Sequence record: MN850579.1
Direction: 5' to 3' (one strand)
DNA: 64,000 nt
Source: Escherichia phage mogra
Positions within the stretch are counted from its first letter, which is position 1. Each line of letters starts with the position of its first letter. A program made the translations under genes and the position numbers. Shown piece by piece: positions 7,798 to 56,144 of the stretch. Below the pieces are notes generated by a model, which ran no database searches, was not told the origin of the DNA, and was given only the letters and a program-made list of their open reading frames with translations.

Positions 7798-7809
7798 TTT
7801 CATAAAAGT

Positions 7810-7846: not shown

Positions 7847-7865
7847 TCTAAAAGAGGATAACATC

Positions 7866-8129
7866 ATGAAATTTAAATTTTTCTACGCAAAACATAAAGT
7901 AACAGGCGAATTTGTTTCAATGTACAACACCGCAGATGACGAAGGGATGATTTATACCCATTTGGGTCTATCTCATTGGGACTCAGACGTGCCTTATATG
8001 TCATCTGAAGCCGAAATAACTCGTTTAGTTAACGGACATATGAACGACCATTTTGGTGTTATTCTTTCTAAAGACCTTAAAGAGGTTATCAACAAAGGAT
8101 ATATGGAACTCGCGGAAGTTGAGATATGA
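7866..8129 (+). CDS. hypothetical protein (87 aa)
   Basis: ATG ORF with AGAGGA RBS downstream of an early promoter; located in the rIIB-ndd interval where T4 has ndd.x small ORFs. Confidence 0.5.
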   Translation: MKFKFFYAKHKVTGEFVSMYNTADDEGMIYTHLGLSHWDSDVPYMSSEAEITRLVNGHMNDHFGVILSKDLKEVINKGYMELAEVEI

Positions 8130-8321
8130 GTTCTAAAATGTGGATAGGAATATGGTTGCTTAGTATCCCAATGATTTGTATAATATTTTCAATTGTGTTG
8201 AGGTACTTATGAAAAATGCACTTCTTATTGTACTAAGAACAATTTGTGATGCTTGGTTTTACATTGCATGTTCGTTCACTGGAACGTGGTTGGCTTTAAC
8301 ATATTTTAATGTAATTTAATT

Positions 8322-8359
8322 GTTTACAACAAGGTAGGATTATGGTATAGTAGTCCTAC
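8322..8359 (+). promoter_or_regulatory. T4-type early promoter with dyad symmetry
   Basis: GTTTACA (8322-8328) plus TATAGT-like -10; dyad GTAGGA(8334-8339)/TCCTAC(8354-8359); near-copy of the 7810 element. Confidence 0.55.
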
Positions 8360-8379
8360 TGAAACATGAGGAACACAAA

Positions 8380-8580
8380 ATGGCTAAGCTTTTTAAAGAT
8401 GTTGAAATTGGTGAAAAATTTGTTCTGAATAATGGTCAGCAGCTTATTCGTGTAGCTTCTATCGCCGGACAAACTCATAACTGTATCGCCCCAACATGTT
8501 GGATTCGATTCTTTATTGAAGATGACACTGAATGTTTAACTGTTGAAGAGCTTTTTGAACGTTCTGATATAGCCGAATAA
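8380..8580 (+). CDS. hypothetical protein (66 aa)
   Basis: ATG ORF with GAGGAA RBS immediately downstream of an early promoter. Confidence 0.5.
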   Translation: MAKLFKDVEIGEKFVLNNGQQLIRVASIAGQTHNCIAPTCWIRFFIEDDTECLTVEELFERSDIAE

Positions 8581-39725: not shown

Positions 39726-40718
39726 ATGTTACCTGTCGTCGGAAAACTTATTTCTCCAAAAGAACTGGCTGAGATTATTCCTTTATCGGAAGCTTACGCA
39801 TCACAAGTGGCTTCTCATCGCGAACAAGTTAATTCGATTATGAACGGTGAAGACCCACGCAAACTTATTGTTGTAGGTCCTTGTTCAATTCATGACCCTA
39901 TTGCTGCTGTTGAATACGGCAAACGTCTGGCTGAACTTCAAACTAGTCTTCCTAATGTTCTGTTAGTGATGCGCGTTTATTTTGAAAAGCCTCGAACTAC
40001 CGTAGGTTGGAAAGGTCTTGTAAATGATCCATATCTTGACGGAAGTTTTGATATGAACCACGGTCTTATAGTTGCACGAACATTGTGTCGTAAACTTCTA
40101 CGTATGGGACTTCCATTAGCAACTGAAGTATTAGACCCATTCACGATTAAGTATCTTTCTGGTATTTTCTCATGGGTTGCTATTGGCGCCCGTACGACTG
40201 AAAGTCAGACACATCGTGAAATTGCTTCAGGTCTACCGATGTGCGTAGGCTTCAAGAACGCAACCAATGGTTCTATTAAAGTAGCTACAGACGCGATGTA
40301 TAGTGCCGCCTGGCCTCATCGGTATATGGGTATGGACGTCGATGGTACTGTAGGCATTGTTGAAGCTGAAGGTAATCAGAATACGCATATCGTATTGCGT
40401 GGCGGGACCAACGGCCCGAACTATCATTCTTCTGATATTCAAGAAGCTTCTAACAAAGCAAGTGCAGTAGGTCTGAATCATTATGTAATGGTTGACTGTA
40501 GCCATGCAAACGCTGCTGGGCATTATAGCAATCAAATTGGTATTGGTAAAAATTTAGCAGCTAATGATTTGGTCAAAGGAATTATGATAGAATCATTCCT
40601 ACATGAAGGAAATCAAAAAATTTCTGATAATATGTCCTATGGCGTTTCCATTACCGATGCGTGCATCAGTTGGGAACAAACTAAAGAGCTGTTAACTTAT
40701 ATTAATAAGGTTCAATAA
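39726..40718 (+). CDS. 3-deoxy-D-arabino-heptulosonate-7-phosphate (DAHP) synthase, class I AroG/AroF/AroH-like (330 aa)
   Basis: Hallmark motifs ...LIVVGPCSIHDP..., ...MRVYFEKPRTTVGWKGLVNDP..., ...WVAIGARTTESQTHREIASGLPMCVGFKN..., ...ESFLHEGNQ...SITDACISWE... align with recalled E. coli AroG; about 20 residues shorter at the N-terminus. Confidence 0.8.
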   Translation: MLPVVGKLISPKELAEIIPLSEAYASQVASHREQVNSIMNGEDPRKLIVVGPCSIHDPIAAVEYGKRLAELQTSLPNVLLVMRVYFEKPRTTVGWKGLVNDPYLDGSFDMNHGLIVARTLCRKLLRMGLPLATEVLDPFTIKYLSGIFSWVAIGARTTESQTHREIASGLPMCVGFKNATNGSIKVATDAMYSAAWPHRYMGMDVDGTVGIVEAEGNQNTHIVLRGGTNGPNYHSSDIQEASNKASAVGLNHYVMVDCSHANAAGHYSNQIGIGKNLAANDLVKGIMIESFLHEGNQKISDNMSYGVSITDACISWEQTKELLTYINKVQ

Positions 40719-41299
40719 TGAAAGCTAGCACATATCTTCAGATTGCTTATCTGATTTCTCAAGAATCAAAATGTTGTTCATGGAAAGTTGGCGCCGTCAT
40801 TGAAAAAGATGGACGCATTATTTCTACAGGTTATAATGGCTCTCCTTCAGGTGGTACAAACTGTTGCGAACATGCATCCGAAAACGGTTGGTTGAAGAAT
40901 AAACCAAGCCCGGTCATCGTTGCTGGGCATAAAGAAGGCACTACAGCATTTGGACGGGTGGATAATTTTGTTTTGGCTAAAGAACATCGGGCCGCTCATA
41001 GTGCATGGTCTGCTAATAACGAAATCCATGCTGAATTGAATGCAATTTTGTTTGCAGCTCGTAAAGGTAATTCTATTGAAGGTGCTACGTTATATACGAC
41101 GCTTTCTCCGTGTCCTGATTGCACTAAAGCTATTACACAGTCAGGTATTAAAAAGGTTGTATACGCAGAATTATATGACAGATCTCCTGAAAATTGGGCA
41201 GACATTCTAAAACAAGCCGGTATTGAAGTAATTCAGTACTCTCGTAATAATCTTCGTTCTCTGAATTGGGAACAAATCCGAAACTTTTGTGGTGAATAA
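40718..41299 (+). CDS. cd: dCMP deaminase (193 aa)
   Basis: Zinc-binding deaminase motifs ...HAELNAI... and ...LSPCPDCTKAI...; same size as T4 Cd (193 aa). Confidence 0.9.
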   Translation: MKASTYLQIAYLISQESKCCSWKVGAVIEKDGRIISTGYNGSPSGGTNCCEHASENGWLKNKPSPVIVAGHKEGTTAFGRVDNFVLAKEHRAAHSAWSANNEIHAELNAILFAARKGNSIEGATLYTTLSPCPDCTKAITQSGIKKVVYAELYDRSPENWADILKQAGIEVIQYSRNNLRSLNWEQIRNFCGE

Positions 41300-41624: not shown

Positions 41625-41654
41625 TAATCTATCGTCAAACAACAAGGAAATAAG

Positions 41655-41987
41655 ATGTCTGAAGTACAACTCCCAATTCGTGCTGTTGGTGAATATGTCA
41701 TTCTGGTTTCTGAACCCGCTCAAGCAGGTGATGAAGAAGTTACCGAATCAGGACTTGTGATTGGTAAACGTGTTCAAGGTGAAGTTCCTGAACTATGTGT
41801 AGTTCATTCTGTAGGTCCTGATGTTCCTGAAGGTTTTGTTGAAGTCGGTGATTTGACTCCACTACCAGTTGGACAAATTCGAAATGTTCCACATCCATTT
41901 GTGGCTTTGGGACTTAAACAACCTAAAGAAATTAAACAGAAATTCGTAACATGCCACTATAAAGCTATTCCGTGTCTTTATAAGTGA
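41655..41987 (+). CDS. 31: gp31 co-chaperonin (GroES analogue), 110 aa
   Basis: [60 protein letters not shown]...[11 protein letters not shown] matches recalled T4 gp31 almost residue for residue. Confidence 0.92.
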
Positions 41988-41995
41988 TATAAATA
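41988..41995 (+). promoter_or_regulatory. late promoter (TATAAATA)
   Basis: Exact TATAAATA 1 nt after the gene 31 stop; about 115 nt upstream of the next ORF. Confidence 0.45.
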
Positions 41996-42111
41996 ACTAT
42001 ATGAAGAGAACACTCTTCTAAGCGGTAGCCTACAACTGAGAGACTTGTCGAAAGAAGGTGAAATTCAGACGAACGTGGCTACTAAATATTATCTCGAATT
42101 GAGAATTTAAA

Positions 42112-42360
42112 ATGATTAAACAATTACAACACGCTCTTGAACTGCAACGCAACGCATGGAATAACGGTCACGAAAACTATGGCGCGTCGATTGATGTTGA
42201 AGCCGAAGCACTGGAAATCCTGCGTTATTTCAAACATCTGAACCCGGTACAGGCAGCTTTGGCCTCTGAACTGGAAGCAAAAGATGAACTGAAATATGCT
42301 AAGCCTTTGGCTTCTGCAGCTCGTAAAGCAGTACGTCATTTTGTTATTACCCTTAAATAA
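42112..42360 (+). CDS. hypothetical protein (82 aa); rIII-like by size and position
   Basis: 82 aa, same length as T4 RIII as recalled, located next to gene 31 and downstream of a late promoter; not verified at sequence level. Confidence 0.45.
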   Translation: MIKQLQHALELQRNAWNNGHENYGASIDVEAEALEILRYFKHLNPVQAALASELEAKDELKYAKPLASAARKAVRHFVITLK

Positions 42361-42469
42361 GTTTTAGGTGATTCGCTACCTTAGTGCGGCTAGAAAATCG
42401 AGGAGCCGTCGAACTGTCTGATTAATGATTTGTGAATCATTATAGTTTTAAGACCCCGACAGTTTTACG

Positions 42470-42498
42470 GTGTACCTCTTGAATGTATTTTGTACTAT
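42470..42498 (+). promoter_or_regulatory. putative early promoter inside the long non-coding region
   Basis: GTGTAC at 42470-42475, 17-bp spacer, TACTAT at 42493-42498; would give a leader of about 150 nt before the 59-aa ORF. Confidence 0.4.
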
Positions 42499-42654
42499 CA
42501 CGCGTCAGAAAAAGGTTATCTGTCTAAGTCGCGGTTGGTATGATGACGGGTTTATGGTTATCCTGTCGTTAAATATCCAAAACCTATGTTCCCATTGAGG
42601 GCTTGCGCAGGCAATGTCAATAAGTCCTGCATTTTCATTTAAAGAGAATTTATA

Positions 42655-42834
42655 ATGGCAAAACAAGCTAAAGCAAAGAAAGCAGTTGAAAAGAAAGTTG
42701 ATGGTACCTCTAAACGCGCTGGATACAAGCGTGGGTCGAACTCTCGTATTAATCAAACAGTTGAGAAGATCATGCGCAGAGCACGTGCAGTTCTTCGAGA
42801 TGATGCTTCTCGTTTTGGAAAGGTTGTTGCATAA
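42655..42834 (+). CDS. small basic protein (59 aa, Lys/Arg-rich)
   Basis: ATG ORF MAKQAKAKKAVEKKVDGTSKRAGYKRGSNSRINQTVEKIMRRARAVLRDDASRFGKVVA; followed 5 nt later by a strong terminator; below the ORF-track size cut-off. Confidence 0.45.
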   Translation: MAKQAKAKKAVEKKVDGTSKRAGYKRGSNSRINQTVEKIMRRARAVLRDDASRFGKVVA

Positions 42835-42839
42835 TTTTA

Positions 42840-42861
42840 GGGAGACTTCGGTCTCCCTTTT
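42840..42861 (+). terminator. intrinsic terminator (GGGAGACTTCGGTCTCCC + T-run)
   Basis: Third copy of the 18-nt UUCG hairpin (42840-42857) followed by TTTTGTG. Confidence 0.7.
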
Positions 42862-42894
42862 GTGCGTTTAGGGCAGAAAAAGTTTAAAAAAGAT

Positions 42895-42923
42895 GTTTAC
42901 TCTCCTGTAGGATGTGTTACTAT
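42895..42923 (+). promoter_or_regulatory. T4-type early promoter
   Basis: GTTTAC at 42895-42900, 17-bp spacer, TACTAT at 42918-42923; ATG at 42966 with GGAGAA RBS. Confidence 0.55.
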
Positions 42924-42965
42924 AGACTTGTACCATCTAATCAATAAAACAACCTGGAGAACAAA

Positions 42966-43334
42966 ATGAAAATCAATCTGAACTCATACATCAAATGTAA
43001 AGACCACGATGGTTATAAAGCTATCGAAATTAAAGAATTCCAGTGGATGTTATACAAAGAGCAATTTGAGTTCGTAGGTTGTATGACCCCTGAAGGTCCT
43101 TCTGATGATTTCTCTTGGAAAATTGTGTTAGCAAACTTTTTCACAGGTGACACATACGAATTAAAAACTATTATTACCAGTAAAATTCGTTCAGAAACAT
43201 ATGTTGACGAAGAAACTGGTTACTCTGAAGATGTTACATGGTATCAAAATGGACGCATTACAGCAGATAACCTGATAGAAAAAATGAAAGCCAAAGGTGT
43301 TTTAAATTTAGACAATTGGATTAAAGTTGCATAA
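42966..43334 (+). CDS. hypothetical protein (122 aa)
   Basis: ATG ORF downstream of an early promoter; no motif. Confidence 0.5.
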   Translation: MKINLNSYIKCKDHDGYKAIEIKEFQWMLYKEQFEFVGCMTPEGPSDDFSWKIVLANFFTGDTYELKTIITSKIRSETYVDEETGYSEDVTWYQNGRITADNLIEKMKAKGVLNLDNWIKVA

Positions 43335-43338
43335 ACCA

Positions 43339-43378
43339 GTTTACTTTGGTACAGGTTATGTTATTATAGACCTGTACC
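43339..43378 (+). promoter_or_regulatory. early promoter embedded in an 8-bp stem-loop
   Basis: GTTTAC at 43339-43344, TATTAT at 43362-43367 within the loop of the dyad GGTACAGG(43348-43355)/CCTGTACC(43371-43378). Confidence 0.55.
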
Positions 43379-43408
43379 AACAAACAACTTAAACATCTGG
43401 AGAATAAA

Positions 43409-43774
43409 ATGAACTACACCAACTTCGAACGTAAATATGTTTCTAACGGTATTGCTGGTTCTTCTGAAGTTATTTGCTTATGGAAACACGAAAACGGTAC
43501 AGTTTGTGAAATCGAACAGTGCATGACTCCTAATTACGTTTATATGCGATTTGAAAATGGTATCACGGTTTCAATCACGATGGAAGGTTCAAATTTTAAA
43601 ATTGCATTAGATGATGATTTCCGTCAGCGTGATTTAGGTACTCATCCTTGTTGGAATGGTGTTAATCGTAAACTTCTGGTTAAAACTTGGATTCGTCATA
43701 TCCTGAGTAACCGAGCTAAACCTGAACATCTCGAAGCAATCTTTGATGTAGTTCTTAACGAATTTGATATCTAA
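43409..43774 (+). CDS. hypothetical protein (121 aa)
   Basis: ATG with GGAGAA RBS downstream of an early promoter. Confidence 0.5.
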   Translation: MNYTNFERKYVSNGIAGSSEVICLWKHENGTVCEIEQCMTPNYVYMRFENGITVSITMEGSNFKIALDDDFRQRDLGTHPCWNGVNRKLLVKTWIRHILSNRAKPEHLEAIFDVVLNEFDI

Positions 43775-43781
43775 ATTAATT

Positions 43782-43797
43782 GGGAGCTTCGGCTCCC
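43782..43797 (+). other. UUCG-loop hairpin (GGGAGCTTCGGCTCCC) without T-run
   Basis: Perfect hairpin 8 nt after the stop, followed by ACTGAGG (RBS of the next gene) rather than a T-run. Confidence 0.45.
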
Positions 43798-43809
43798 ACT
43801 GAGGAAATT

Positions 43810-44424
43810 ATGTTTAAAGTTAATACTTTTTATAAAATGAATTTTAAAAATGGGGATATTACTCCACGCCTTAAAAACATGTTCTCATATGACCTTATTG
43901 AGCCTTTTGAAGTTTTAGAAGTTACTGATGCCGGCTCAGTTTGTGAAATTAGAACTTCTGAAGGTAAAATTTATCAGGCCGGTGTTGGTAAATTCAGTAA
44001 TTGTTTTACTTTAATATTCTCGACCGATTTAGATGAGCATTTTATTGAATGTCCTAACCCTAAGGTCTATGAAGTTCCACATCAAGAAACTAAGAAAAAT
44101 GGGCCGCACGAATATACGAAGGTTGAAACTCCTCACGGCGGGATGTGGCGACATAACTCTCCTTTTGGAAGTAAAGGAACATTTGCTCAACTGGCTAAGC
44201 CCTACGACGATGAAAAATATGTAGTAGTCCTTTTATCTGAACAGGGTACTCAAGACCGTGGATGCCAGCGTTCCGGTTTATTGAGTGAACTCGAAGCTCA
44301 TAACCTAGCACGTGAATTCGTTGAGAAAAATCCTGGTTCTGAAGCTCTAGTCATGAAAGCAATTACTCAATATATCACTGCTCAACCTGTTGTTCATCCG
44401 GTAGAAATTAATTTCATTAAGTAG
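43810..44424 (+). CDS. hypothetical protein (204 aa from ATG 43810)
   Basis: GAGGAAATT RBS plus ATG at 43810; the track start 43780 lies within the upstream hairpin. Confidence 0.5.
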   Translation: MFKVNTFYKMNFKNGDITPRLKNMFSYDLIEPFEVLEVTDAGSVCEIRTSEGKIYQAGVGKFSNCFTLIFSTDLDEHFIECPNPKVYEVPHQETKKNGPHEYTKVETPHGGMWRHNSPFGSKGTFAQLAKPYDDEKYVVVLLSEQGTQDRGCQRSGLLSELEAHNLAREFVEKNPGSEALVMKAITQYITAQPVVHPVEINFIK

Positions 44425-44454
44425 TGTACATCCAAGGACGGATTAGAGTATAAT
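44424..44454 (+). promoter_or_regulatory. T4-type early promoter
   Basis: GTGTACA at 44424-44430 and TATAAT at 44449-44454; ATG at 44479. Confidence 0.5.
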
Positions 44455-44478
44455 GATTTCTTTAGTAAGTGGAAAAAT

Positions 44479-44676
44479 ATGAAATTTTTAATAGCACAAA
44501 CAGTCCAATTAAAAGGTGTTGGAATCCCTGGGATGATTTTTAAAGTTCTCAACGAATTTAAAACTGCCGCTGGAATTATCAATGAAGCGTATGCTGTTCA
44601 ATGGGTTGATGGGACTTCTGACATACGTATGGGTAAAGAGTTATCTCCTATTAAAGGGTTGAAACATGTTGAATAA
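44479..44676 (+). CDS. hypothetical protein (65 aa)
   Basis: ATG ORF downstream of an early promoter. Confidence 0.45.
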   Translation: MKFLIAQTVQLKGVGIPGMIFKVLNEFKTAAGIINEAYAVQWVDGTSDIRMGKELSPIKGLKHVE

Positions 44677-44884
44677 ATTAATCCAGAAATTGTTTGGTAC
44701 GGAAATGATTGAAGTTACTTATCGTGTAACCGACGTTTTTCCATATTACGCGGAAAACCGTTTAGAACCATACGTTACGTCAATTAAAATGCCTAAAAAT
44801 GACAGAAATTTATCTATCGAAGACCGTATACCTGGATACGGACATTGGGCTGATGTTGAAATTATAAGTGTTAAAGATGTCTGA
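44666..44884 (+). CDS. hypothetical protein (72 aa)
   Basis: Coupled ORF; no motif. Confidence 0.45.
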   Translation: MLNKLIQKLFGTEMIEVTYRVTDVFPYYAENRLEPYVTSIKMPKNDRNLSIEDRIPGYGHWADVEIISVKDV

Positions 44885-45335
44885 ATTAGAAATAAGAAGT
44901 AATTTCAAATGGCCGTCATGTGCATTAAGTAACTTTGCTCAATGGCCTTTTGTTATGGATGGTATTCAATTCGGAGGTCTTGAAGGATTTCTCCAAGGAT
45001 GTAAGGTGAAAAATGTTGAACAACAAAGACGTATATTTGGGTTGTCTGGATTGGCTGCACAGCAAGCTGGAAGGTCTTACGCAAGAGCTCAGGACCGTGG
45101 GACTCTCTTCTGGTTAGGAGTTCCATTTTCAAGATACTCCGAAGCGTGGAAAGAATTATACACAAATGCATATTTTGAAGCCGCGATCCAAAACAAGGGG
45201 TTTCGTGATGCCTTACAAGCCTCTAAAGGAAAAATTTTGAAGCACAGCATGGCCAGCCACCTAACAAAAGATGATACAATACTAACTGAAGATGAATTTA
45301 TTGACGTGTTAAACCTATTAAGAGACTCTTTATGA
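44877..45335 (+). CDS. NADAR-domain (YbiA-like) protein, putative N-glycosidase / ADP-ribosyl hydrolase (152 aa from ATG 44877)
   Basis: ...CALSNFAQWPFVMDGIQFGGLEGFLQGCKV... matches the YbiA/NADAR core (SNFAAWPIKVDGKTWPTSEHYFQAQKF in E. coli YbiA as recalled), plus a downstream ...AIQNKGFRDALQASKGKIL... block. Confidence 0.6.
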   Translation: MSELEIRSNFKWPSCALSNFAQWPFVMDGIQFGGLEGFLQGCKVKNVEQQRRIFGLSGLAAQQAGRSYARAQDRGTLFWLGVPFSRYSEAWKELYTNAYFEAAIQNKGFRDALQASKGKILKHSMASHLTKDDTILTEDEFIDVLNLLRDSL

Positions 45336-46156
45336 AGCCTACTATTTTGACTGATATTGATGGTGTATGTTTAAGCTGGCAATCTGGACTTCCTTATTTT
45401 GCCCAAAAATATAACCTTCCATTAGAACATATTTTAAAAATGATTCAGGACGAAAAATTTATTTCTCCTGGTAAACTGTTCAATACCGACGATAACCTTG
45501 GTAAACAATTAATAGAAAAATATAATAGCTCTGATTTTATTCGTTACTTAGCGCCTTATTCTGATGCTCTTCGAGTTATCAATAAACTAAAAGAAGACTA
45601 TAATTTTGTAGCCGTGACGGCGCTAGGTGATTCAATTGATGCTCGATTGAATAGACAATTTAATTTGAATGCTTTGTTCCCAGGCGCTTTCTCTGAAGTA
45701 ATGATGTGTGGTCATGATTCTTCAAAGGAACAATTATTCGAACTAGCTAAAACAAAATATAACATAATTTGTTACGTTGACGATTTAGCTCATCATTGTG
45801 ACCATGCGGCAGAAATTCTTAATGTACCGATTTATTGGTTGGCTCGTGGTGAACGTGATGCCATTCCTCGTACTGCACAACGTGTACACACGTGGGATGA
45901 TATTGAATCTCGTTTGGTTCCACCTGAGCATAATTCAGATTCAGATCGTGAAGACCTTTTAAAACGATTGGCGGATTTGCTTAAAGAATCTGGTGCAACA
46001 AGTCCAGGTGCATGGCCTAATCAAATTGGTGGCCCCTCGACAACACGTACTCCATATACCTGGCGAACCCCAGGACCAACTGATATGCAACCGTGGTGGA
46101 CGATTCAAAACTTTCCTTTAGATTCGTCTAAATGGACTTGGACTATAAATTGTTAA
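45332..46156 (+). CDS. HAD-superfamily phosphatase-like protein with Trp/Pro-rich C-terminal tail (274 aa)
   Basis: HAD motif I ...ILTDIDGVCLSW... (DxDGV), motif II ...FVAVTAL..., motif IV ...ICYVDDLAHH...; the last 50 aa (PGAWPNQIGGPSTTRTPYTWRTPGPTDMQPWWTIQNFPLDSSKWTWTINC) have unusual low-complexity composition. Confidence 0.5.
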   Translation: MKPTILTDIDGVCLSWQSGLPYFAQKYNLPLEHILKMIQDEKFISPGKLFNTDDNLGKQLIEKYNSSDFIRYLAPYSDALRVINKLKEDYNFVAVTALGDSIDARLNRQFNLNALFPGAFSEVMMCGHDSSKEQLFELAKTKYNIICYVDDLAHHCDHAAEILNVPIYWLARGERDAIPRTAQRVHTWDDIESRLVPPEHNSDSDREDLLKRLADLLKESGATSPGAWPNQIGGPSTTRTPYTWRTPGPTDMQPWWTIQNFPLDSSKWTWTINC

Positions 46157-46165
46157 GGGTTAATT

Positions 46166-46435
46166 ATGTTTGTAGTTCATGATATTACAGATGGCAAAAA
46201 TACCACACGTGACTACGGTCACGTTAACATGTTCTTTCGAGACTGGCCATTGTTTCGTTCAGTAAAAGACGCAGAAATATTTAAAGAGTGTGTTGAACAA
46301 GGGTTCATCTACATTTCAGAATACTATGTTGAAGGACTCGGTAAATGGATTACCACTTATCAGAAAACGCTGAAATCGCTTCTAGATGAAGTGGCTTATA
46401 ATAGAACCGTAACCAAAATCGAGGATATCAAATGA
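46166..46435 (+). CDS. hypothetical protein (89 aa)
   Basis: ATG ORF immediately upstream of the DNA ligase gene and coupled to it (ATGA). Confidence 0.45.
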   Translation: MFVVHDITDGKNTTRDYGHVNMFFRDWPLFRSVKDAEIFKECVEQGFIYISEYYVEGLGKWITTYQKTLKSLLDEVAYNRTVTKIEDIK

Positions 46436-47925
46436 TTTTAGATATTTTAAACCAAATAGCTGCGATCGGTTCTACTAAAACAAAACAAGAAATCCTTAAG
46501 AAAAATAAGGACAACAAATTACTTGAACGTGTGTATCGTTTAACATATGCACGTGGTATCCAGTATTATATTAAGAAATGGCCAGGACCGGGTGAAAGGT
46601 CTCAAGCGTATGGACTTCTTGAATTAGATGACATGTTGGATTTTATTGAGTTCACATTAGCCACTCGTAAACTCACCGGTAATGCTGCAATTAAAGAGCT
46701 CATGGGTTATATCGCTGACGGTAAACCTGATGATGTAGAAGTCCTTCGTCGTGTAATGATGCGCGACCTTGAAGTAGGTGCTTCAGTGTCTATCGCGAAT
46801 AAGGTGTGGCCTGGACTTATTCAATTGCAACCACAGATGTTAGCATCTGCATATGATGAGAAATTGATTACTAAAAATATTAAATGGCCTGCATTTGCCC
46901 AATTAAAAGCAGATGGTGCTCGTTGTTTCGCTGAAGTTCGCGATGATGGTGTTCAATTCTTTTCTCGTGCCGGTAACGAATATCATGGTCTTACTCTATT
47001 AGCGGATGAACTGATGGAAATGACTAAAGAAGCTCGTGAAAGACACCCTAATGGGGTTTTAATCGACGGTGAATTAGTTTACCATTCATTTGATATTAAA
47101 AAGGCTGTGAGCTCAGGAAATGACCTGTCGTTCTTATTTGGTGATAATGAAGAATCCGAAGAAGTACAAGTTGCGGACCGTAGCACTTCAAACGGTTTAG
47201 CAAATAAATCTCTTCAAGGGACTATTTCTCCTAAAGAAGCTGAAGGTATGGTTCTTCAAGCCTGGGACTATGTTCCTTTAGATGAAGTCTATTCTGATGG
47301 CAAAATTAAAGGTCAGAAATACGATGTTCGTTTTGCTGCTCTTGAAAATATGGCTGAAGGCTTTAAACGAATTGAGCCAATTGAAAATCAGTTAGTTCGT
47401 AATCTTGACGAAGCTAAAGTGGTTTATAAAAAATATGTTGACCAAGGTCTTGAAGGTATTATCCTTAAAAACCGTGATTCATATTGGGAAAACAAACGTT
47501 CTAAGAACCTAATTAAATTTAAAGAAGTTATTGATATCGCTTTAGAAGTTGTAGGATACTATGAACACTCTAAAGACCCTAACAAATTAGGTGGTGTCGA
47601 ACTCGTATCACGTTGTCGTCGTATTACAACCGATTGTGGTTCAGGGTTTAAAGATACAACTCATAAAACAGTTGATGGTGTAAAGGTTCTTATTCCTTTA
47701 GATGAGCGACATGATTTGGACCGTGAACGATTAATGACCGAAGCTCGTGAAGGTAAATTGATTGGACGTATTGCTGATTGTGAATGCAATGGTTGGGTTC
47801 ATTCTAAAGGACGTGAAGGCACTGTAGGTATTTTCCTCCCAATTATTAAAGGGTTCCGTTTTGATAAAACAGAAGCGGATTCGTTTGAAGACGTATTTGG
47901 ACCGTGGTCCCAGACAGGTTTATAA
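46432..47925 (+). CDS. 30: ATP-dependent DNA ligase gp30 (497 aa)
   Basis: MILDILNQIAAIGSTKTKQEILKKNKDNKLLERVYRLTYARGIQYYIKKWPGPG... and adenylation motif ...FAQLKADGARCFAEV... match recalled T4 DNA ligase (487 aa). Confidence 0.92.
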   Translation: MILDILNQIAAIGSTKTKQEILKKNKDNKLLERVYRLTYARGIQYYIKKWPGPGERSQAYGLLELDDMLDFIEFTLATRKLTGNAAIKELMGYIADGKPDDVEVLRRVMMRDLEVGASVSIANKVWPGLIQLQPQMLASAYDEKLITKNIKWPAFAQLKADGARCFAEVRDDGVQFFSRAGNEYHGLTLLADELMEMTKEARERHPNGVLIDGELVYHSFDIKKAVSSGNDLSFLFGDNEESEEVQVADRSTSNGLANKSLQGTISPKEAEGMVLQAWDYVPLDEVYSDGKIKGQKYDVRFAALENMAEGFKRIEPIENQLVRNLDEAKVVYKKYVDQGLEGIILKNRDSYWENKRSKNLIKFKEVIDIALEVVGYYEHSKDPNKLGGVELVSRCRRITTDCGSGFKDTTHKTVDGVKVLIPLDERHDLDRERLMTEAREGKLIGRIADCECNGWVHSKGREGTVGIFLPIIKGFRFDKTEADSFEDVFGPWSQTGL

Positions 47926-48113
47926 TGAAAGCTTATTTAGAAACAGTTATTGTAGCTAAGAAGGATGGTGGAGATGTTTCCACCTCTTGCTCTCAGATTA
48001 TATTAGATTTTCCTAATAACGATTCCTATCATATTTTTATGGACAATTTCGATAAGTACGAAAAAGGCTCTAATTTTGAAGTTTATCGTACTTTGCTTCC
48101 GATTGTGGATTAA
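47925..48113 (+). CDS. hypothetical protein (62 aa from ATG 47925)
   Basis: TAATG overlap with the ligase stop; followed by a strong terminator. Confidence 0.4.
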   Translation: MKAYLETVIVAKKDGGDVSTSCSQIILDFPNNDSYHIFMDNFDKYEKGSNFEVYRTLLPIVD

Positions 48114-48132
48114 GAGCCTTCGGGCTCTTTTT
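48114..48132 (+). terminator. intrinsic terminator (GAGCCTTCGGGCTC + T5)
   Basis: UUCG-loop hairpin 48114-48127 followed by TTTTTGG. Confidence 0.7.
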
Positions 48133-48168
48133 GGCATAAATATAAATTATTACTAAAAGGAAAACACT

Positions 48169-50256
48169 ATGTCTGAACAATTAAATGAAGTGTTTGAATC
48201 TGAAGGCAGTCTTCCTGTCGTCAATTTGAACCCTAAAGCTAAAGTTCCACAAGTCTGGAAAATTGGTGATATCGATACAAATATTGTAGTTCGTTTATTC
48301 TCTTACCTTTCCGAAGGCGACGCTGTAAAACAAGTTAAACTTGGCGACAAATACGCTCATGTTGTTATTATGAGTCTGTCTGAAAAGGGTAATCTAGCTG
48401 AATTGAAAAATGGCCTTGGTCCTGCTCCTATTGATGCAATCAACACCATTTTCAATACAGTGTATGAACAGGTTAAAGCTCTTCGTATGGATGCAGTTCT
48501 GTTCCGATTCCCTACCAAGAAATTGAAAGGACGTGGACAACAACTTCAAACTCTTCTTGCTCGTTTAGTTTCTACTAAAACCGGTGGTCGTTTTAAAGTA
48601 TTGTCGGCAATGTATCAATTCACAGGTAAACACACCTATGTGATGATGGTTCGTAAAAATGCCAACATTGAAGATATTAAAGGCATCCCTAACATTAACA
48701 CAGAGTTGTACACGAAAGTAGATTCTGATGTTGGCGAAGTTTATGTGAGTAAAAAGACCGGCGAAAAGGTCACCAAAGAAACGGCTATCGCTGGTTCTAT
48801 TGCTGCTGTAGAAGAAAAACGTAAAGATAAGCCTGTTATTGCTCGTACTAAAATTTCTCGTCGTGCTATTGCAGCAAGTCAATCTTTAGAAGCTGACCGC
48901 CAAGAAGGTGAGTTATTCCAGAAATACGAAAATTCTGCTAAAGAAGTTAGTGGCCCAGCTACAGCCGAATTACTTCCTGAAGCATATGAAATCGTACTAG
49001 CCCAAGCATCATCCACAGCAAAAGGCACTTTAGTTGCTGATATCGAAAATAAGATTTATAATCGTATTGATGAATCCTTTAGATTTGCTGATGAAGTTTC
49101 TTATGGTAGTGTTATTAAGCCAACTTTAGAAAAGTTTGCTAAGAAAATTAAAACTGAAAAAACAACATCTGTTAAAGCATTAGCTGCTTTTGTTGAAGCT
49201 GCAAACGAAATTGCGGACTCTATTAAAGACGAATGGTTTGAAGATTTTAGACGTGATAATTTCCAACTGGCCGATGATGTTTTAGCTGAAGTATCTGAAA
49301 AAACTTGGAAACAACGTAAATCAGCGTTCTTGTCTAATGTGATGTATACTTATGCACGAGAATCGGCTAGAGGCACCTTTAATATAACAATGAATCGGGA
49401 CCCTAAACAATACTCTGTTGCTGAAAAACGAGCTATTCGCGAATATGCCTCTTCTGCGTATACAGATATCAATAATATGTTGTTAGGTCGTTATAAACCA
49501 GATTTTTACGATGTTGCAGATGAAGATGAAGTTAAACGCGCTATTGATGGTCTTGATTCGGCGTTTTTAAATGGAGACCGTTTACCTGAAGGACTAACGT
49601 TATATAGAGCTCAGTCTATCAGAATGCCTATTTACGAAGCAATGGTTAAAAATAAGGTATTCTATTTCAGAAACTATGTTTCCACTTCACTAGCTCCTAT
49701 TATTTTCGGTGGGTTTAAAGAGAACGTTGCCCTTGGACTTGCTCCTGAAGAAGTTCGCAAAGAGCTTAACATTGACAATAACGACGAAGGTGTTACTATT
49801 TCTCCTAGTCAAGTAAGAACAGCTATGCATGCACCAGAACAAATCCGTGTTAACGTTGGATGGGCTATTGATGGCGCTCATAAAGTTAACGTGATTTATC
49901 CAGGACAGTTGAGTAATCACCCTAATGAGCAAGAAATTATTTTGCCTAGAGGCATTCTCTTACAGATAAATAAAATTACAGATGCGTCATCTGACACTGG
50001 TGCAGGTTTAGAATCCAACCTTAAATTTATTCAAGCTGAAGTCATGTCCTCGGACCAGTTGGACGAAGCTGTCATTTACGATGGTGATGTTCTCATGGAA
50101 ACAGGCGAGGTAGTTGCTATGACTGGTGAAATCGAATCAGATGAGCCGGTATCTTTTGCCTCATTTGTAGAAAAAACTAGTGCACCTAAAGGTTTGAAAT
50201 TGTTAGCATCTTTAATGGATTTAGAATCAGTTCCGTTTAAATTTGTCCAAGGATAG
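48169..50256 (+). CDS. alt: Alt ADP-ribosyltransferase (virion-packaged; modifies host RNA polymerase), 695 aa
   Basis: Multiple blocks match recalled T4 Alt (682 aa), e.g. ...YFRNYVSTSL..., ...VNVIYPG..., ...NEQEIILPRG..., ...INKITDAS..., C-terminus ...VPFKFVQG. Confidence 0.88.
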   Translation: MSEQLNEVFESEGSLPVVNLNPKAKVPQVWKIGDIDTNIVVRLFSYLSEGDAVKQVKLGDKYAHVVIMSLSEKGNLAELKNGLGPAPIDAINTIFNTVYEQVKALRMDAVLFRFPTKKLKGRGQQLQTLLARLVSTKTGGRFKVLSAMYQFTGKHTYVMMVRKNANIEDIKGIPNINTELYTKVDSDVGEVYVSKKTGEKVTKETAIAGSIAAVEEKRKDKPVIARTKISRRAIAASQSLEADRQEGELFQKYENSAKEVSGPATAELLPEAYEIVLAQASSTAKGTLVADIENKIYNRIDESFRFADEVSYGSVIKPTLEKFAKKIKTEKTTSVKALAAFVEAANEIADSIKDEWFEDFRRDNFQLADDVLAEVSEKTWKQRKSAFLSNVMYTYARESARGTFNITMNRDPKQYSVAEKRAIREYASSAYTDINNMLLGRYKPDFYDVADEDEVKRAIDGLDSAFLNGDRLPEGLTLYRAQSIRMPIYEAMVKNKVFYFRNYVSTSLAPIIFGGFKENVALGLAPEEVRKELNIDNNDEGVTISPSQVRTAMHAPEQIRVNVGWAIDGAHKVNVIYPGQLSNHPNEQEIILPRGILLQINKITDASSDTGAGLESNLKFIQAEVMSSDQLDEAVIYDGDVLMETGEVVAMTGEIESDEPVSFASFVEKTSAPKGLKLLASLMDLESVPFKFVQG

Positions 50257-50285
50257 TTTACAAACACATGGATGTGTGATACTAT
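50256..50285 (+). promoter_or_regulatory. T4-type early promoter with spacer dyad
   Basis: GTTTAC at 50256-50261, TACTAT at 50280-50285, dyad ACACAT/ATGTGT; ATG at 50315 with GAGGAAAA RBS. Confidence 0.55.
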
Positions 50286-50314
50286 CATCCCATCAACAAC
50301 ATGAGGAAAACGTT

Positions 50315-50608
50315 ATGAAATCTATGCTTCGCTTTAATGGTCAAGAACTAGTAGTTGAAGATGCTATCCCAGCGGATGATGTTTTTAACGAAGCTGTGAT
50401 TGACGAATTGAATCGAGTATTCCCAGGTGCATTCCATATTGCTATGGAACCTCTTAAAAACTTTCGTGACCCTGAGCACACTGATCAAATTTTTATCGGT
50501 GTGGTGACAGGTCATTTAGAAACAGAGGTACCAATGGTCGTATTAGTTAAATACTCTAAAGATGATACTCCATTCCGAGCACCAGCATTCCTTTCATTCC
50601 GTAAATAA
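50315..50608 (+). CDS. hypothetical protein (97 aa from ATG 50315)
   Basis: ATG with GAGGAAAA RBS downstream of an early promoter; the track start 50243 is a TTG inside alt. Confidence 0.5.
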   Translation: MKSMLRFNGQELVVEDAIPADDVFNEAVIDELNRVFPGAFHIAMEPLKNFRDPEHTDQIFIGVVTGHLETEVPMVVLVKYSKDDTPFRAPAFLSFRK

Positions 50609-50617
50609 ACCCCTAAA

Positions 50618-50640
50618 GGGAGACGTTGTCTCCCTTTTTT
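50618..50640 (+). terminator. intrinsic terminator (GGGAGAC-GTT-GTCTCCC + T6) at the convergence with gene 54
   Basis: 7-bp hairpin 50618-50634 followed by TTTTTT; the gene 54 stop (minus strand) is at 50642-50644, so the element separates convergent transcription units. Confidence 0.65.
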
Positions 50641-50641
50641 C

Positions 50642-51604
50642 TTATAGTCCTAAAACTCTTGACGCAGAATTCACAACACCTGTCAATGTGTTTATATTAG
50701 ACACACCACCAGCAGTCCCACCTAATCTAGAAAGTCTTGATACTGCACTTCCTAGTCCAGAATCATTCTGATTATTTCCAAACATTCCTGAAACACTACT
50801 AATAAGTCCTGATTCCAGCCATTCTAAAGCAGCCTGTCTATTTACAGCACCTGATTGCATAACACGATAAGCAAATGTTACATCAAAAACTGTTATCTGA
50901 TTATCACCATCATACGTTAACTCAGGAGAAGAGACACTAACAGGAATACATCCGGTGAACATGACAGCGGTATGTGGTAAACCATTTCGTGCGTGTAAAT
51001 TAACCTGAATATCTGCTTCGACGTCTTGTGGTAAAGCGCGAAGACCTGTTACAGGGTCTTGGACTGAGTTTACCCAGTCTTGCATTGCTCTAAAGTTAGA
51101 TGCTTCAGAATCCATTCTAAAGCTTATTACTAACGGGTCCATTTCACGACCGGTAATTCGGATGTTCGGGGAGTTATAGTTGAAATCTGTTTCATACGAT
51201 AATCGATTCTCAGGCATTTTTACAGAATAAATCATTAAACCTGTATTATTATATGCCATATTGAAGAAGTCTATCAGATAAGCTCCTACTGTGAACTCAC
51301 CTAACAAGCTTTGTACCGTACGTTGGCTCATTGCTCCAATCAGATATTTACTTATACCCGATTTTCGAATTAATTTCTGTGTTCCTGCTGTAATCAGGGT
51401 TGTTACGCCCTGATTGATATCACCTTGAGACAATCCTAACCAATCAGAATCCAACCCTAAGTTATTATAAGCAAAACTACCAATTGACGAAATTAGCGAA
51501 GACGATTTGGTTGATGGTGTAGTAGCAAATACACAACTAAACATATTGTTTCGTTGGAAATCCGCATTTATAGCTTGGTTATTAAATTCTTCTAAAGAGT
51601 ACAT
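50642..51604 (-). CDS. 54: gp54 baseplate tail-tube initiator (320 aa)
   Basis: Same size as T4 gp54 (320 aa); last gene of the 51-27-28-29-48-54 hub operon by synteny. Confidence 0.8.
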   Translation of the reverse strand: MYSLEEFNNQAINADFQRNNMFSCVFATTPSTKSSSLISSIGSFAYNNLGLDSDWLGLSQGDINQGVTTLITAGTQKLIRKSGISKYLIGAMSQRTVQSLLGEFTVGAYLIDFFNMAYNNTGLMIYSVKMPENRLSYETDFNYNSPNIRITGREMDPLVISFRMDSEASNFRAMQDWVNSVQDPVTGLRALPQDVEADIQVNLHARNGLPHTAVMFTGCIPVSVSSPELTYDGDNQITVFDVTFAYRVMQSGAVNRQAALEWLESGLISSVSGMFGNNQNDSGLGSAVSRLSRLGGTAGGVSNINTLTGVVNSASRVLGL

Positions 51605-52713
51605 TAGAAAGTCCCCGCATAAAGTGAAGAACGGTTTAATGTAATAATTTCTCGCATTGTTATCTCTAACGTAAATGTTGATGGTAAGTTAGGAGCAACA
51701 GCAAGACCATTAAATTGTCCATTTGGAGTTTTATCAAAACGTACGCTTTGAATTTGACACGGGCCAAATACGTCAGTTAATCCATCAAATTTAGATGTAT
51801 AACCAAAGTTTTTAACCATCCAAATTGTAGGGTTGCTTACAACTAATACATTTGTTAATGACGCAGTAATCTTTTCAAATAATGTCTTATTTTTTACTGC
51901 ATCATCTGGCGTCATAGGCTCAATAAACGTTGAACGGTACCATTCGTCTAAATAACTTTTAATCTCTTGGGCGTACTGTGATTTACCGGTCTCACCATAT
52001 GAGAAATAGTTAAAATACTGGTAAATGTTTATAATAGCCATAAGGTCTTCAGTTGAACGCGGAGTTAAATCCCATGTAAAGACTTTAGTACGGTTCTCGG
52101 CACCGCCATACATACTACGAGAAGTCGTATAAATCTGTTCGTTATTATCAGCCATAAGCCCTTGAGTAATAGAATCTAATGCACCAAAAACTGCGGTAGA
52201 AGCAATGTTACTTAAAACACCCGTAGCAGTACCTCCACCTTTAGTAATAAGGCTATCACCGATATCATTAAAACGATGTGAAGTTGTATCAACATCAGAT
52301 TTGGAACGTGGCAAAAGTATATTAGCAACAGGAGTTTTGTTTATAGTAGACTTATTAGCTCCGGCAGGAAGCAAGCCATTTGAGAATTTAGTCACTGCAT
52401 CTTTCACGTTATCAGTTAAATCTGATATGATACCATTAGATGAAGTCCCAGCGTATGCCGGACGTAAATTCCTGAGGGATCCTGAATCGCGTGCAGACAT
52501 ATTGTACGCGGTAAATAATAATCCATTCTTATAAAGGTCTGTTACCTGGAAGTCTCCTGTGGAGTCATTTCCGGCTGCTCTTCCTGTAGGAAATTGAGCA
52601 ACATAAGTTTTAGTAGTTGTTTCGGTTTTAGTGCTTTGCCCAGCACTTTCTGAGACTGGGATTGCTTTATTTAAATCCTTTGCATCTACTACTATTTCTT
52701 TTACACTAATCAT
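51604..52713 (-). CDS. 48: gp48 baseplate tail-tube cap (369 aa)
   Basis: Size (T4 364 aa) and position between genes 29 and 54; TAATG-type coupling. Confidence 0.8.
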   Translation of the reverse strand: MISVKEIVVDAKDLNKAIPVSESAGQSTKTETTTKTYVAQFPTGRAAGNDSTGDFQVTDLYKNGLLFTAYNMSARDSGSLRNLRPAYAGTSSNGIISDLTDNVKDAVTKFSNGLLPAGANKSTINKTPVANILLPRSKSDVDTTSHRFNDIGDSLITKGGGTATGVLSNIASTAVFGALDSITQGLMADNNEQIYTTSRSMYGGAENRTKVFTWDLTPRSTEDLMAIINIYQYFNYFSYGETGKSQYAQEIKSYLDEWYRSTFIEPMTPDDAVKNKTLFEKITASLTNVLVVSNPTIWMVKNFGYTSKFDGLTDVFGPCQIQSVRFDKTPNGQFNGLAVAPNLPSTFTLEITMREIITLNRSSLYAGTF

Positions 52714-52721
52714 AATAATCC

Positions 52722-54494
52722 TTAATTAACACCGGTGGCATGGAAAATTCCAGGAGCCGTTGTACTTGTTACAGGGGTCATATTCTGGACTACGGTATTC
52801 TTTTTGACGACATTATTTGTGTTACTAATCGCCGCTACCGGTTGCTGTTGTTTAGATTCAGAAGCACGTCCTTTCTCTATTGACTGAACTTGTTTTGCTT
52901 CCGGAGATTTAGACGAAGATTCAGGCTTAACTGTTGTCTGAGCCTTTTTGGCTTCAGCCATTTTATTATTTAGCTTTTCAAATCTAGCATCTAATTCCTT
53001 TTTAACAACAGGAGTTTTATTAAGTTCAGGGTCTTTAATAAGTTTACTTAAATCAGCATAAGACTTCTCGACGTTTTTAGCATTTTCCGGATTAGTCATA
53101 TCGATTTTATCGATATAATCCTCAAATCTAACCAGTGCCGCACGAGTTTCATTAGCTTTTATATACGCCTCTTTACGCTCCTCTTCAGGTAACTCTTTTA
53201 ATTTTGCCGATTCCGCAGCACGCTCATCACTTGTACTAAACTCTTCTTTATTGTCATTACCACGAACCCAGTTAGTAACGAATGTTTTGCCGCGTTGTAG
53301 CATATCAAGACCTTTAGAAACGGTTCCTAATTCCCCATCGTCACGCTTCATTTGATATTTAGCGACTTTCTCTTGGTCTTCTTTCTTTAATTTGTTCCCA
53401 GTAGTTTCTTGGAATCCTTCTAAAGCACGTCCTTCTATTTCGTCTGCGGTATCACCAAAACCTATAGCACGCAATATAGACGCGGAGAGTTTAGCCATTC
53501 CTAATTGAATTAGTTCACCTAAGTTCATTAATGCTGTTCCTACACCTTTGACAATAGCAACGGTTAAACCACCCCAGTCTCCAGCTTCCCACAATTGTTT
53601 TATCGAGTCAATAGAAGTGAATATATCACTTAAGAATTTACCCCACTCTTTAGCTTCATCGGAGAATTTAGTAAAGTTTTCATCAAATAAATCCCAGGCA
53701 GAAGTGAACTTGTCTGTCCAATATTTGAAATGGACTATCAATAAATCAATACCGATAACAATACCAAGAATAAGTGCGGCCATTTTTGCCGCTTCAATAG
53801 CAGCCGTTATAGTGTATTTGAAAAGCATTCCAGCAATTCTGTCTGAAATTGATATTGATTTATTAAACCCGGCTTGAACCGTTTTGGTGAGCATTGCAAT
53901 TTTATCGCTCAATTTAAAGCTAATTCCGCCTTTAGAATCGGAAGTAGAATTAGCACTTTCTTGAACCGGCGTTGGGAAGAAATCTTCGTCTGGCTTATTA
54001 TCAATCTTTTCAGGTGTAGGTAATGCTTTAAACAACTCATCAGAAGTTTCGTTCTCAACCACTTTAACAGGTATCGCGTTCTCAATTACTTCAAGAGAGG
54101 TGCCTCCTGTATTTTGAATAGCGGTAGATGTTTGTAATTTTTGCTCTAATAATGTAGCTAATCGGTCTAACTTAGAGCTTATTGCACTAGAAACTTCGTT
54201 TATACTTTTAGTGACTTCAGTTTGTTTTTCAATAACTTCTGCGATAAGCTCTGTGCCTTCAGCAGTATTATCTGTCGAATTCTTTAAGTCTCCAATTGAT
54301 TCAATAATTCCATTGCCTTTATCTTCTACACTTTGCGATGTGAGTTCAGACGCGGCTTGGACATCGTCTAGTTTTGATGAAATATCATTCAATGCTTCTA
54401 ATGAATCGGTAGCTGCTGTTGCAGCTACTTTTTGTGGTTTATTATCGGCAATGACCTTATTTCTACGCATGGATTTCATTTCTTCAGGTTTCAT
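52722..54494 (-). CDS. 29: gp29 baseplate hub subunit / tail length tape-measure (590 aa)
   Basis: Same size as T4 gp29 (590 aa); coiled-coil-rich N-terminal half, hydrophobic central segment; synteny. Confidence 0.8.
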   Translation of the reverse strand: MKPEEMKSMRRNKVIADNKPQKVAATAATDSLEALNDISSKLDDVQAASELTSQSVEDKGNGIIESIGDLKNSTDNTAEGTELIAEVIEKQTEVTKSINEVSSAISSKLDRLATLLEQKLQTSTAIQNTGGTSLEVIENAIPVKVVENETSDELFKALPTPEKIDNKPDEDFFPTPVQESANSTSDSKGGISFKLSDKIAMLTKTVQAGFNKSISISDRIAGMLFKYTITAAIEAAKMAALILGIVIGIDLLIVHFKYWTDKFTSAWDLFDENFTKFSDEAKEWGKFLSDIFTSIDSIKQLWEAGDWGGLTVAIVKGVGTALMNLGELIQLGMAKLSASILRAIGFGDTADEIEGRALEGFQETTGNKLKKEDQEKVAKYQMKRDDGELGTVSKGLDMLQRGKTFVTNWVRGNDNKEEFSTSDERAAESAKLKELPEEERKEAYIKANETRAALVRFEDYIDKIDMTNPENAKNVEKSYADLSKLIKDPELNKTPVVKKELDARFEKLNNKMAEAKKAQTTVKPESSSKSPEAKQVQSIEKGRASESKQQQPVAAISNTNNVVKKNTVVQNMTPVTSTTAPGIFHATGVN

Positions 54495-55024
54495 TCAAGC
54501 AATCCAATAATTTCTGCTATACCCTTAATAGGACCATTAGGGCCTGGAATAGCAATAGTTGTCGAAAGGTCTTCTGCCCATTTGATTACAAAAGCAGGCA
54601 TCTCAAGGAAAGAAATTTCTTTCTCTTCGTCATTAACTTTTATTAAGCAATTTGATAGCATTTCACTGATTGTAGCGAATTGTTCAAATTTGCCTGGAGG
54701 TCTAAAATAAAAAGTATTGCCTTGGAATTGGAATTCTGTTCGTTGGCATACATAGACGTCATCTAGTTTATACGTGAATCCGTCTTTTTCAACTTCAGAC
54801 TTAAGTTTGTTATTAAATTCCAATATATGTAGACATGCAAAATCAAAATCAGCAGGACTCATATTTTTACAAATAGAATCAGCTAAGATTTTCATGTTTT
54901 CATCAGGACCTTTAACGTCCTTTAAAAGATTATAATGTTTGAGCCCTAATTTGGGAATCATTACCTTTTTATTAGACTGCGGTAGAATTATTTTCTTTAG
55001 AGGTAGAATCAGATTTAAGTTCAT
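54491..55024 (-). CDS. 28: gp28 baseplate hub distal subunit (177 aa)
   Basis: Size equals T4 gp28 (177 aa); between genes 27 and 29. The start overlaps gene 27 by 53 nt, so an internal start is possible. Confidence 0.7.
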
Positions 55025-56144
55025 TTTTAACCTTAACTGGGTTAACAGGTTCTAACACCATTGAGTTGGTAAACATGTACAGATGAGTTTGTGAGTTGTT
55101 ATTTGATAACTCATGAATAACTTCATCTACGTAAAATTCGGATTTGAATTGGTTCTTTTGGTCAACAAATATAATTTTAGTAGCAGGCGTTATGTTAAAA
55201 TTGCCTGTAGTAGTGCATTTAGCATATCCGTCATATTGAGCCATTGTCTGAAGACGACTTGCTTCTTCAAATCCATTACGATAGGTCATTTCGGAATATC
55301 CACCGGATCTTGACACAAGAATAGCATTATCACCATCGCCTGTAACAATAACCGGAATAGATGTATCTAAAAATGAATGAGCGAATATCGTGGCGTTTTT
55401 AATAGGGTCTCTTGTAAATTGGTTAGCTTTAGTCATCCAGGTGAAATCCCATACTAATGGATACTCAAGCTCTTGAATATACTGACCTACAGTATTTGGC
55501 TCACCTACAATCATCTTAATGCCTTCCTGACCAATAAGAGTATCGTAGTCAATCATGTTTACGCCTAAAATATCTTGCCATACGAATACGAACTTATCAC
55601 TCGCTGTAGCAAGTCCTAATTCTCTGACATATGCCAAATAATCATCAAATGTGCTTGTCCAAGGGATATCAGGAACATAAGCATTAATAGTGTTTATTGG
55701 CGGGGTAATTAACGCACGGTCTTTGTATATGACACCTAACATTTCACGTATAGATTCTCCTGCGTCCGGGAAGAATGGTCGCCCAAATTTAAGATTCTCT
55801 ATAGAATGTATTGTTCCAAGCTCAATTGCAATAATATTGTCACCTTTTGAGTCCACAGACACAGAATAATGTTTGCATCCATAAATTCGAGTTCTAACTT
55901 GGAGAGGTGTGTTTGAATTTGAAACAGAGATTTGAACTATCTGTCTACCGTCCATTTTAGTGTGGATGTTTTTAGTGTCATAAAATTGAAGAATCCCTTC
56001 ATTTCTTCCATATAGCGAATCTCGCATGGTTAAAGTTGTTATTGTTGCCGCGAGTTCAACGTATCTATTTTCTTGCCAAGCCGAATAATCTTGGTATAAT
56101 TTAACGCTTAAGTTAGGATATCCTGGACGTTGGAATACTTTCAT
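54972..56144 (-). CDS. 27: gp27 baseplate hub subunit (390 aa)
   Basis: Size (T4 391 aa) and position downstream of gene 51. Confidence 0.8.

Follow-up and report, generated by a model that had tools for sequence, protein, structure and literature searches.

The window, that is, the whole stretch of 64,000 nucleotides from Escherichia phage mogra analysed here (sequence record MN850579.1), carries at 44877-45335 on the plus strand adfN (gene 30.3), which specifies a single-domain NADAR protein of the phage class, 152 residues long and predicted to be a DNA guanine ADP-ribosylglycohydrolase. The gene is held tightly between two neighbours. Upstream, the stop of the 30.4 homologue (44666-44884, plus strand; 72 residues, phrog_2042, no function assigned) overlaps its start by 8 nt; downstream, its own stop shares 4 nt, ATGA, with the start of the 30.2 homologue (45332-46156, plus strand), a 274-residue protein with a predicted nucleotidase-like phosphatase domain of the HAD superfamily and a variable tail rich in tryptophan and proline. 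Further 3' in this same-strand block come an ATP-dependent DNA ligase (46432-47925, plus strand) and alt (48169-50256, plus strand), the gene of an Alt-type ADP-ribosyltransferase (PF03496, E=6e-28), 2.8 kb downstream of adfN, in keeping with the 3 kb or so given by an initial annotation made from the sequence. From 30.9 to 30 the genes are closely packed, run in one direction and overlap at their start and stop codons. Their order (30.9, 30.8, 30.7, a variable slot, 30.5, 30.4, 30.3, 30.2, 30.1, 30, alt.1, alt) is that of T4 and RB69, and the open reading frame at 44877-45335 is therefore gene 30.3. The window DNA is 99.7% identical to that of Escherichia phages JM17 and FL18, members of Mosigvirus, the genus of RB69. 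Scans for promoters and terminators around adfN gave counts no higher than those of shuffled controls, and no site with a MotA-box-like pattern was found in 41625-55259; expression of the gene with an early or middle 30.x block would be expected from T4 synteny only. T4-like NADAR genes have been described as early genes co-expressed with phage ADP-ribosyltransferases (PMC9503650).

The variable slot deserves a word of its own. Two genes upstream of adfN, itself an anti-defence gene, a 204-residue reading frame (43810-44424, plus strand; phrog_17531, no Pfam match) occupies the place of gene 30.6 of T4 and RB69, and the DNA there aligns with neither of these phages. It is a variable accessory gene, present in about 120 phage records, all of them from Escherichia, Shigella, Enterobacteria or Citrobacter phages or recorded as Mosigvirus.

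The adfN frame opens with ATG at 44877. A mechanical list of reading frames starts it three codons earlier, at a GTG (44868); the ATG agrees with the annotations of T4 and JM17 and gives the published numbering of the residues E36 and K43. The peptide in which the initial annotation had recognized a NADAR core, LSNFAQWPFVMDGIQFGGLEGFLQGCK, spans residues 17-43. This is not a chance reading frame: its product matches PF08010 (Phage_30_3) with E=2.1e-69 (232 bits against a cut-off of 36 bits, over positions 1-138 of the 138 of the profile), homologues turn up by tblastn in 1510 phage records, with 80% or more of the protein covered in 1503 of them, and dN/dS relative to T4 is 0.05. A match to phrog_652 (E=2.4e-52) leads to the same family. 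The records are mainly those of Straboviridae infecting Escherichia, Klebsiella, Shigella, Aeromonas, Acinetobacter, Vibrio and Enterobacter; full-length copies identical or 99% identical to the window protein account for 64 of them, and nearly all database copies bear the label 'hypothetical protein'. The internal, out-of-frame reading frame 30.3' of T4 (75 residues) maps to window positions 45013-45243 (plus strand, frame +2 of adfN), where it meets a stop after 34 codons; the frame thus lacks conservation and is unlikely to be a genuine gene.

The window gene is the Mosigvirus orthologue of T4 gp30.3, now known as AdfN (anti-DarT factor NADAR). The two proteins, both of 152 residues, align without a gap and are identical at 146 positions (96%); the differences, with the window residue first, are K11R, E89P, I120V, M125I, H128G and D139A, and H128, a glycine in T4, sits five residues from the catalytic H123. 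They share the 30.4 and 30.2 neighbours, the triad E36, K43 and H123, the C-terminal helix, and a predicted NADAR core without added domains; apart from the six substitutions, they differ in that T4 is a Tequatrovirus whereas the window phage is a Mosigvirus, and in the closed 30.3' frame of the window. The coding sequences differ at 51 nucleotides; by the method of Nei and Gojobori, 40 of these changes count as synonymous and 11 as non-synonymous, over the six amino acid differences (dN/dS 0.05). The initial annotation had left it uncertain whether a NADAR homologue exists in the 30.x cluster of T4. There is one, this very gene, so that the locus is not novel: the finding is already known, the family, its fold, catalytic residues, substrate and role having been published between 2012 and 2026. 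Compared with its flanks (42600-47950), similarity to T4 rises steeply at adfN, to a local peak with 89% nucleotide identity, 96% amino acid identity and a dS of 0.60. Genes around it are far more diverged (ligase 63.6% amino acid identity, 30.2 62.5%, 30.4 51.4%, Alt 41.8%), and dS reaches 1.6-1.9 for 30.5 and for the N-terminal domain of 30.2; 30.7 and 30.9 are likewise unusually conserved. The peak could reflect very strong constraint, or an exchange of segments between T-even genera.

Membership of the NADAR superfamily had been proposed from the core peptide, with a search against PF08719 as its test. Taken alone, this search would have misled: the window protein gives no match to PF08719 at E<=0.1, and none at E<=1 in a family scan, because gp30.3 proteins have a Pfam family of their own, PF08010. 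A single-sequence phmmer search of PDB sequences found nothing either. Yet 23 of the 61 members of the family match PF08719 directly, the best at 1.5e-7, and one of them (P0064) carries PF08010 and PF08719 together, while the family profile reaches E. coli YbiA (E=0.0088) with the Glu and the Lys aligned. An absent match is therefore a false negative. It marks a limit of profile sensitivity and does not count against homology; the reading that a protein lacking PF08719 is no NADAR is ruled out by the family members, by the YbiA match and by the fold. As for the latter, the AlphaFold2 model of the window protein (pLDDT 92.8), computed from an alignment built without the T4 sequence, displays the alpha+beta fold of YbiA and NADAR proteins, and its three best Foldseek matches in the PDB are the three NADAR structures. 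The NADAR core seen at the outset is thus confirmed by fold, profile and relatives alike.

The catalytic residues, on which the proposal had also been made to depend, are all in place. Glu36 (codon GAA, 44982-44984, plus strand) aligns with the Glu of YbiA, Lys43 (AAG, 45003-45005, plus strand) is both catalytic and phosphate-coordinating, and His123 (CAC, 45243-45245, plus strand) lies in the last beta-strand, predicted at residues 120-123; each of the three is invariant in the alignment of 61 homologues, which reaches down to about 35% identity. Glu and Lys are separated by a spacing of 7, the same as in PnNADAR (E43/K50) and in the NADAR of E. coli C7 (E88/K95) (PMC11543638). In T4 AdfN, the E36A change abolishes de-ADP-ribosylation in vitro and weakens counter-defence, and both E36A and K43A impair rescue (PMC11825919). 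It is the residue of the last strand that tells the classes apart. In the classification that de Souza and Aravind drew up by bioinformatics, as cited in the NADAR literature, gp30.3 defines a 'phage NADAR' class with a His at this position, where the YbiA class has a Glu and the DarG1 class an Asp (PMC11125620, PMC11543638). With His123 in all 61 homologues, the window protein lacks the mark of the YbiA class, represented by E. coli YbiA itself (2B3W), a housekeeping N-glycosidase for riboflavin intermediates which shares some 20% identity with AdfN. It also differs from DarG1 (E. coli C7, Geobacter lovleyi 8BAT), which uses the Asp and has an N-terminal extension forming a positively charged channel, whereas AdfN is reduced to the core domain of 152 residues. 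The gene of DarG1 stands beside that of DarT1, while adfN has the 30.4 and 30.2 homologues as its neighbours and no DarT gene beside it. Between 42.5 and 50.5 kb, the part examined, Alt (PF03496) is the only ADP-ribosyltransferase, and it is not a DarT, making adfN an orphan. Finally, DarG1 detoxifies DarT1 in uninfected cells, and T4 AdfN does not.

What such an orphan does has been studied in T4. Resistance of T-even phages to DarTG1 maps to gene 30.3, hence renamed adfN (Johannesman et al., Nat Commun 2025, PMC11825919). Its deletion makes T4 sensitive to DarTG1, ectopic AdfN-T4 rescues RB69, and the purified protein strips ADP-ribose from DarT1-modified DNA without binding DarT1 (PMC11825919). 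Two other groups found that the T4 NADAR cleaves ADP-ribose in vitro from guanine and not from cytosine (PMC11125620, PMC12945103), and a transposon screen saw insertions in T4 30.3/adfN lost specifically when the host carried DarTG1 (bioRxiv 10.1101/2025.11.20.689424). The early proposal of an eraser protecting phage DNA from a DarT-type toxin has thereby been vindicated for a protein 96% identical to that of the window (PMC11825919). By analogy with T4, infection of a DarTG1 host would free DarT1, which would ADP-ribosylate guanines of the phage DNA at N2 and block its replication; AdfN, as a small single-domain N-glycosidase of NADAR fold, would then hydrolyse the bond between guanine and ribose, yielding ADP-ribose and unmodified guanine. 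Glu36 and Lys43 would hold ribose and diphosphate in place, His123 may stand in for the third acidic catalytic residue of the other NADAR classes, and DarT1 itself would be neither bound nor inhibited.

We hold with high confidence that the window AdfN is a NADAR-fold eraser of the guanine ADP-ribosylation made by DarT1, and a counter-defence against DarTG1. Orthology, fold, conserved catalytic residues and an unbroken C-terminal helix are seen in the window allele itself; the chemistry, the specificity for guanine (neither thymine nor cytosine), the absence of DarT1 binding and the need for AdfN in growth on DarTG1 hosts were established with the T4 orthologue, and would be expected to hold here by analogy. 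To be sure, T4 AdfN fails to protect uninfected cells against DarT1, and its rescue of non-T-even phages is only partial (PMC11825919, PMC11125620); the account of its mechanism in vivo is therefore incomplete; a T-even factor potentiating AdfN has been postulated (PMC11825919). Comparable solutions exist in other phages. AdfN-Bas32 and AdfN-Bas60, from T5-like phages and Vequintavirinae, are likewise orphan, phage-encoded ADP-ribosylglycohydrolases reversing DNA modification by DarT, but they come from different NADAR clades by independent acquisition, and act without T-even infection (PMC11825919). T4 Tk.4, or AdfM, is an orphan antitoxin-like macrodomain, rather than a NADAR, directed against the thymine-modifying DarTG2 (bioRxiv 10.1101/2025.11.20.689424). 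In view of the strong conservation of gp30.3 across Straboviridae of many hosts, the substrate under selection could be broader than DarT1-modified DNA.

The postulated T-even factor draws attention to the gene immediately downstream. A HAD-like phosphatase had been recognized there at first sight, rightly so as far as motifs and model go. The Pfam match of gp30.2 to HAD_2 is weak (E=0.024), but the four HAD motifs (D8xD10, T96, K132, D150-D151), which make up the full catalytic set, show little or no variation among 42 homologues. In a structural model that is confident over residues 1 to about 220, the phosphatase domain occupies residues 1 to about 195, and structural comparison ranks HAD phosphatases highest, 5'(3')-deoxyribonucleotidases among them; gp30.2 is thus predicted to be a HAD-fold phosphatase. 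Its C-terminal Trp/Pro-rich tail, modelled with low confidence, appears disordered and is completely different in T4. The 30.2 gene annotated in JM17 is 20 codons shorter than that of the window. Since a potentiating factor has been called for in T-even phages (PMC11825919), gp30.2 is a candidate, either as that factor or as part of it, the two genes then making a two-enzyme module. The ATGA overlap fits this proposal, and so do the adjacency of 30.3 and 30.2 in T-even phages of E. coli and in Acinetobacter phage 133, and the distribution of 30.2, found in 1441 phage records against 1510 for 30.3 with almost the same breakdown by genus. Against it, AdfN alone is active in vitro, and at two distant metagenomic loci with 30.3 homologues, L004 and L007, the downstream genes have no similarity to gp30.2; the pairing is therefore not universal, and a universal adjacency of 30.3 and 30.2 can be dismissed. 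A term search of the text of the transposon-screen preprint (bioRxiv 10.1101/2025.11.20.689424) found no mention of 30.2. On balance, we regard this module as unlikely.

A phosphatase of nucleotidase type next to a NADAR protein also invites a metabolic reading, in which AdfN would act on riboflavin intermediates, or clear soluble ADP-ribose derivatives used as immune signals, and possibly feed its product to the HAD enzyme. The initial annotation had allowed for such a role in salvage or in the processing of NAD-derived metabolites, and there is some ground for it: YbiA is the nearest solved relative detectable by sequence, and adfN overlaps, and is distributed together with, the phosphatase gene. 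A riboflavin or salvage role is disfavoured because His123 replaces the catalytic last-strand Glu of the YbiA class in every member (PMC11125620). Moreover, the published tree sets the gp30.3 cluster nearest to DarG1 antitoxins and not to YbiA, and in T4 the genetic phenotype of adfN is confined to DarTG1 and depends on the catalytic residues (PMC11825919). As the main function of AdfN the metabolic reading is very unlikely; a secondary role on small molecules is possible.

The presence of alt on the same strand, at the distance given above, had suggested yet another arrangement, the pairing of a writer of ADP-ribose with its eraser. AdfN would then remove from host proteins the ADP-ribosylation, or the RNA chains, put there by Alt, ModA or ModB, the phage's own enzymes. 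Proximity apart, nothing supports this. Every substrate on which the T4 enzyme has been shown to act is guanine-linked ADP-ribose on nucleic acids (PMC11125620, PMC12945103), the known one in infection being the product of the DarT1 of the host and not the protein marks of Alt, and the NADAR literature cited here reports no de-ADP-ribosylation of proteins. The vicinity itself is the ordinary, fixed T-even order, in which five genes are counted between the two (30.2, 30.1, 30, alt.1 and alt itself). Conservation is uncoupled as well, gp30.3 being 96% identical to its T4 counterpart when Alt is at 41.8%, and no listed neighbour of the distant 30.3 loci L004 and L007 has an ADP-ribosyltransferase Pfam match. 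That AdfN erases Alt-type marks is highly improbable, and DarT1-modified DNA is retained as its substrate.

Whether the eraser is functional in this particular phage is a fair question in the genus of RB69. In RB69, the insertion of a T after nucleotide 410 of the gene (nt 411) cuts off the last 15 residues of AdfN, which form the C-terminal helix; this truncation is the reason why RB69 is sensitive to DarTG1, the helix being needed for full activity and counter-defence (PMC11825919). When the window, T4 and RB69 copies are aligned as DNA, the additional T of RB69 sits between window positions 45286 and 45287, and the window does not have it. Unlike the naturally truncated AdfN-RB69, the window protein extends to residue 152 as that of T4 does, and its C-terminal alpha-helix (residues 138-151; 45288-45329, plus strand) is found in the model with high confidence and in the alignments with T4 and RB69. 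Over residues 1-137 the window and RB69 proteins are 97% identical, and identity in the flanking genes is 89-99%. Crosses have already produced this combination: RB69 x T2/T4 chimeras became resistant to DarTG1 on gaining only the 3' part of 30.3 (PMC11825919), so that an RB69-like N-terminus followed by an intact C-terminus works, and this is the arrangement of the window allele. As this allele is full length, unlike that of RB69, it is predicted to be active, and the phage to resist DarTG1. It is hardly credible that the allele has decayed as in RB69 and is kept by linkage with no protection against DarTG1, as kinship with a Mosigvirus whose copy is frameshifted and the truncation of several 30.3 database clusters might suggest, when the RB69 insertion is absent, the frame is open over all 152 codons, every catalytic residue is present, dN/dS is 0.05, and full-length, nearly identical copies recur in the 64 records mentioned above.

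Shortened entries are found elsewhere in the family. The clusters P0004-P0006, P0008, P0014, P0017 and P0049 gather close T-even relatives of gp30.3 that are truncated or fused, with sizes of 126, 109, 91, 107 and 86 residues, as in SV76, UGJNEcP4, vB_Eco_NR1 and RPN226. RB69 may therefore not be the sole T-even phage with a disrupted adfN, unless these forms are artefacts of gene calling rather than real frameshifts.

The window phage is thus a Mosigvirus with an intact copy of a gene that was lost in RB69, the type species, and its predicted natural resistance to DarTG1 has a bearing on the choice of therapeutic or model phages. The many database copies of gp30.3 could be re-annotated as AdfN. 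The comparison also touches on the question of why the AdfN of T-even phages needs a T-even infection to work fully.

Two further observations concern the surroundings. The distant locus L004, a metagenomic contig of 308 kb presumably derived from a phage, has a NUDIX hydrolase gene and a Thg1-family gene (7115-7879 and 8308-8468) less than 4 kb from its gp30.3 homologue, which hints at a different context for a phage NADAR, that of NAD or RNA repair. In the window itself, a gene for DAHP synthase, the first enzyme of the shikimate pathway (39726-40718, plus strand; 330 residues, PF00793, E=9.5e-75), lies directly upstream of that of dCMP deaminase (40718-41299), at a place where T4 has the small reading frames cd.1-cd.5; this Mosigvirus lineage carries it as an auxiliary metabolic gene.
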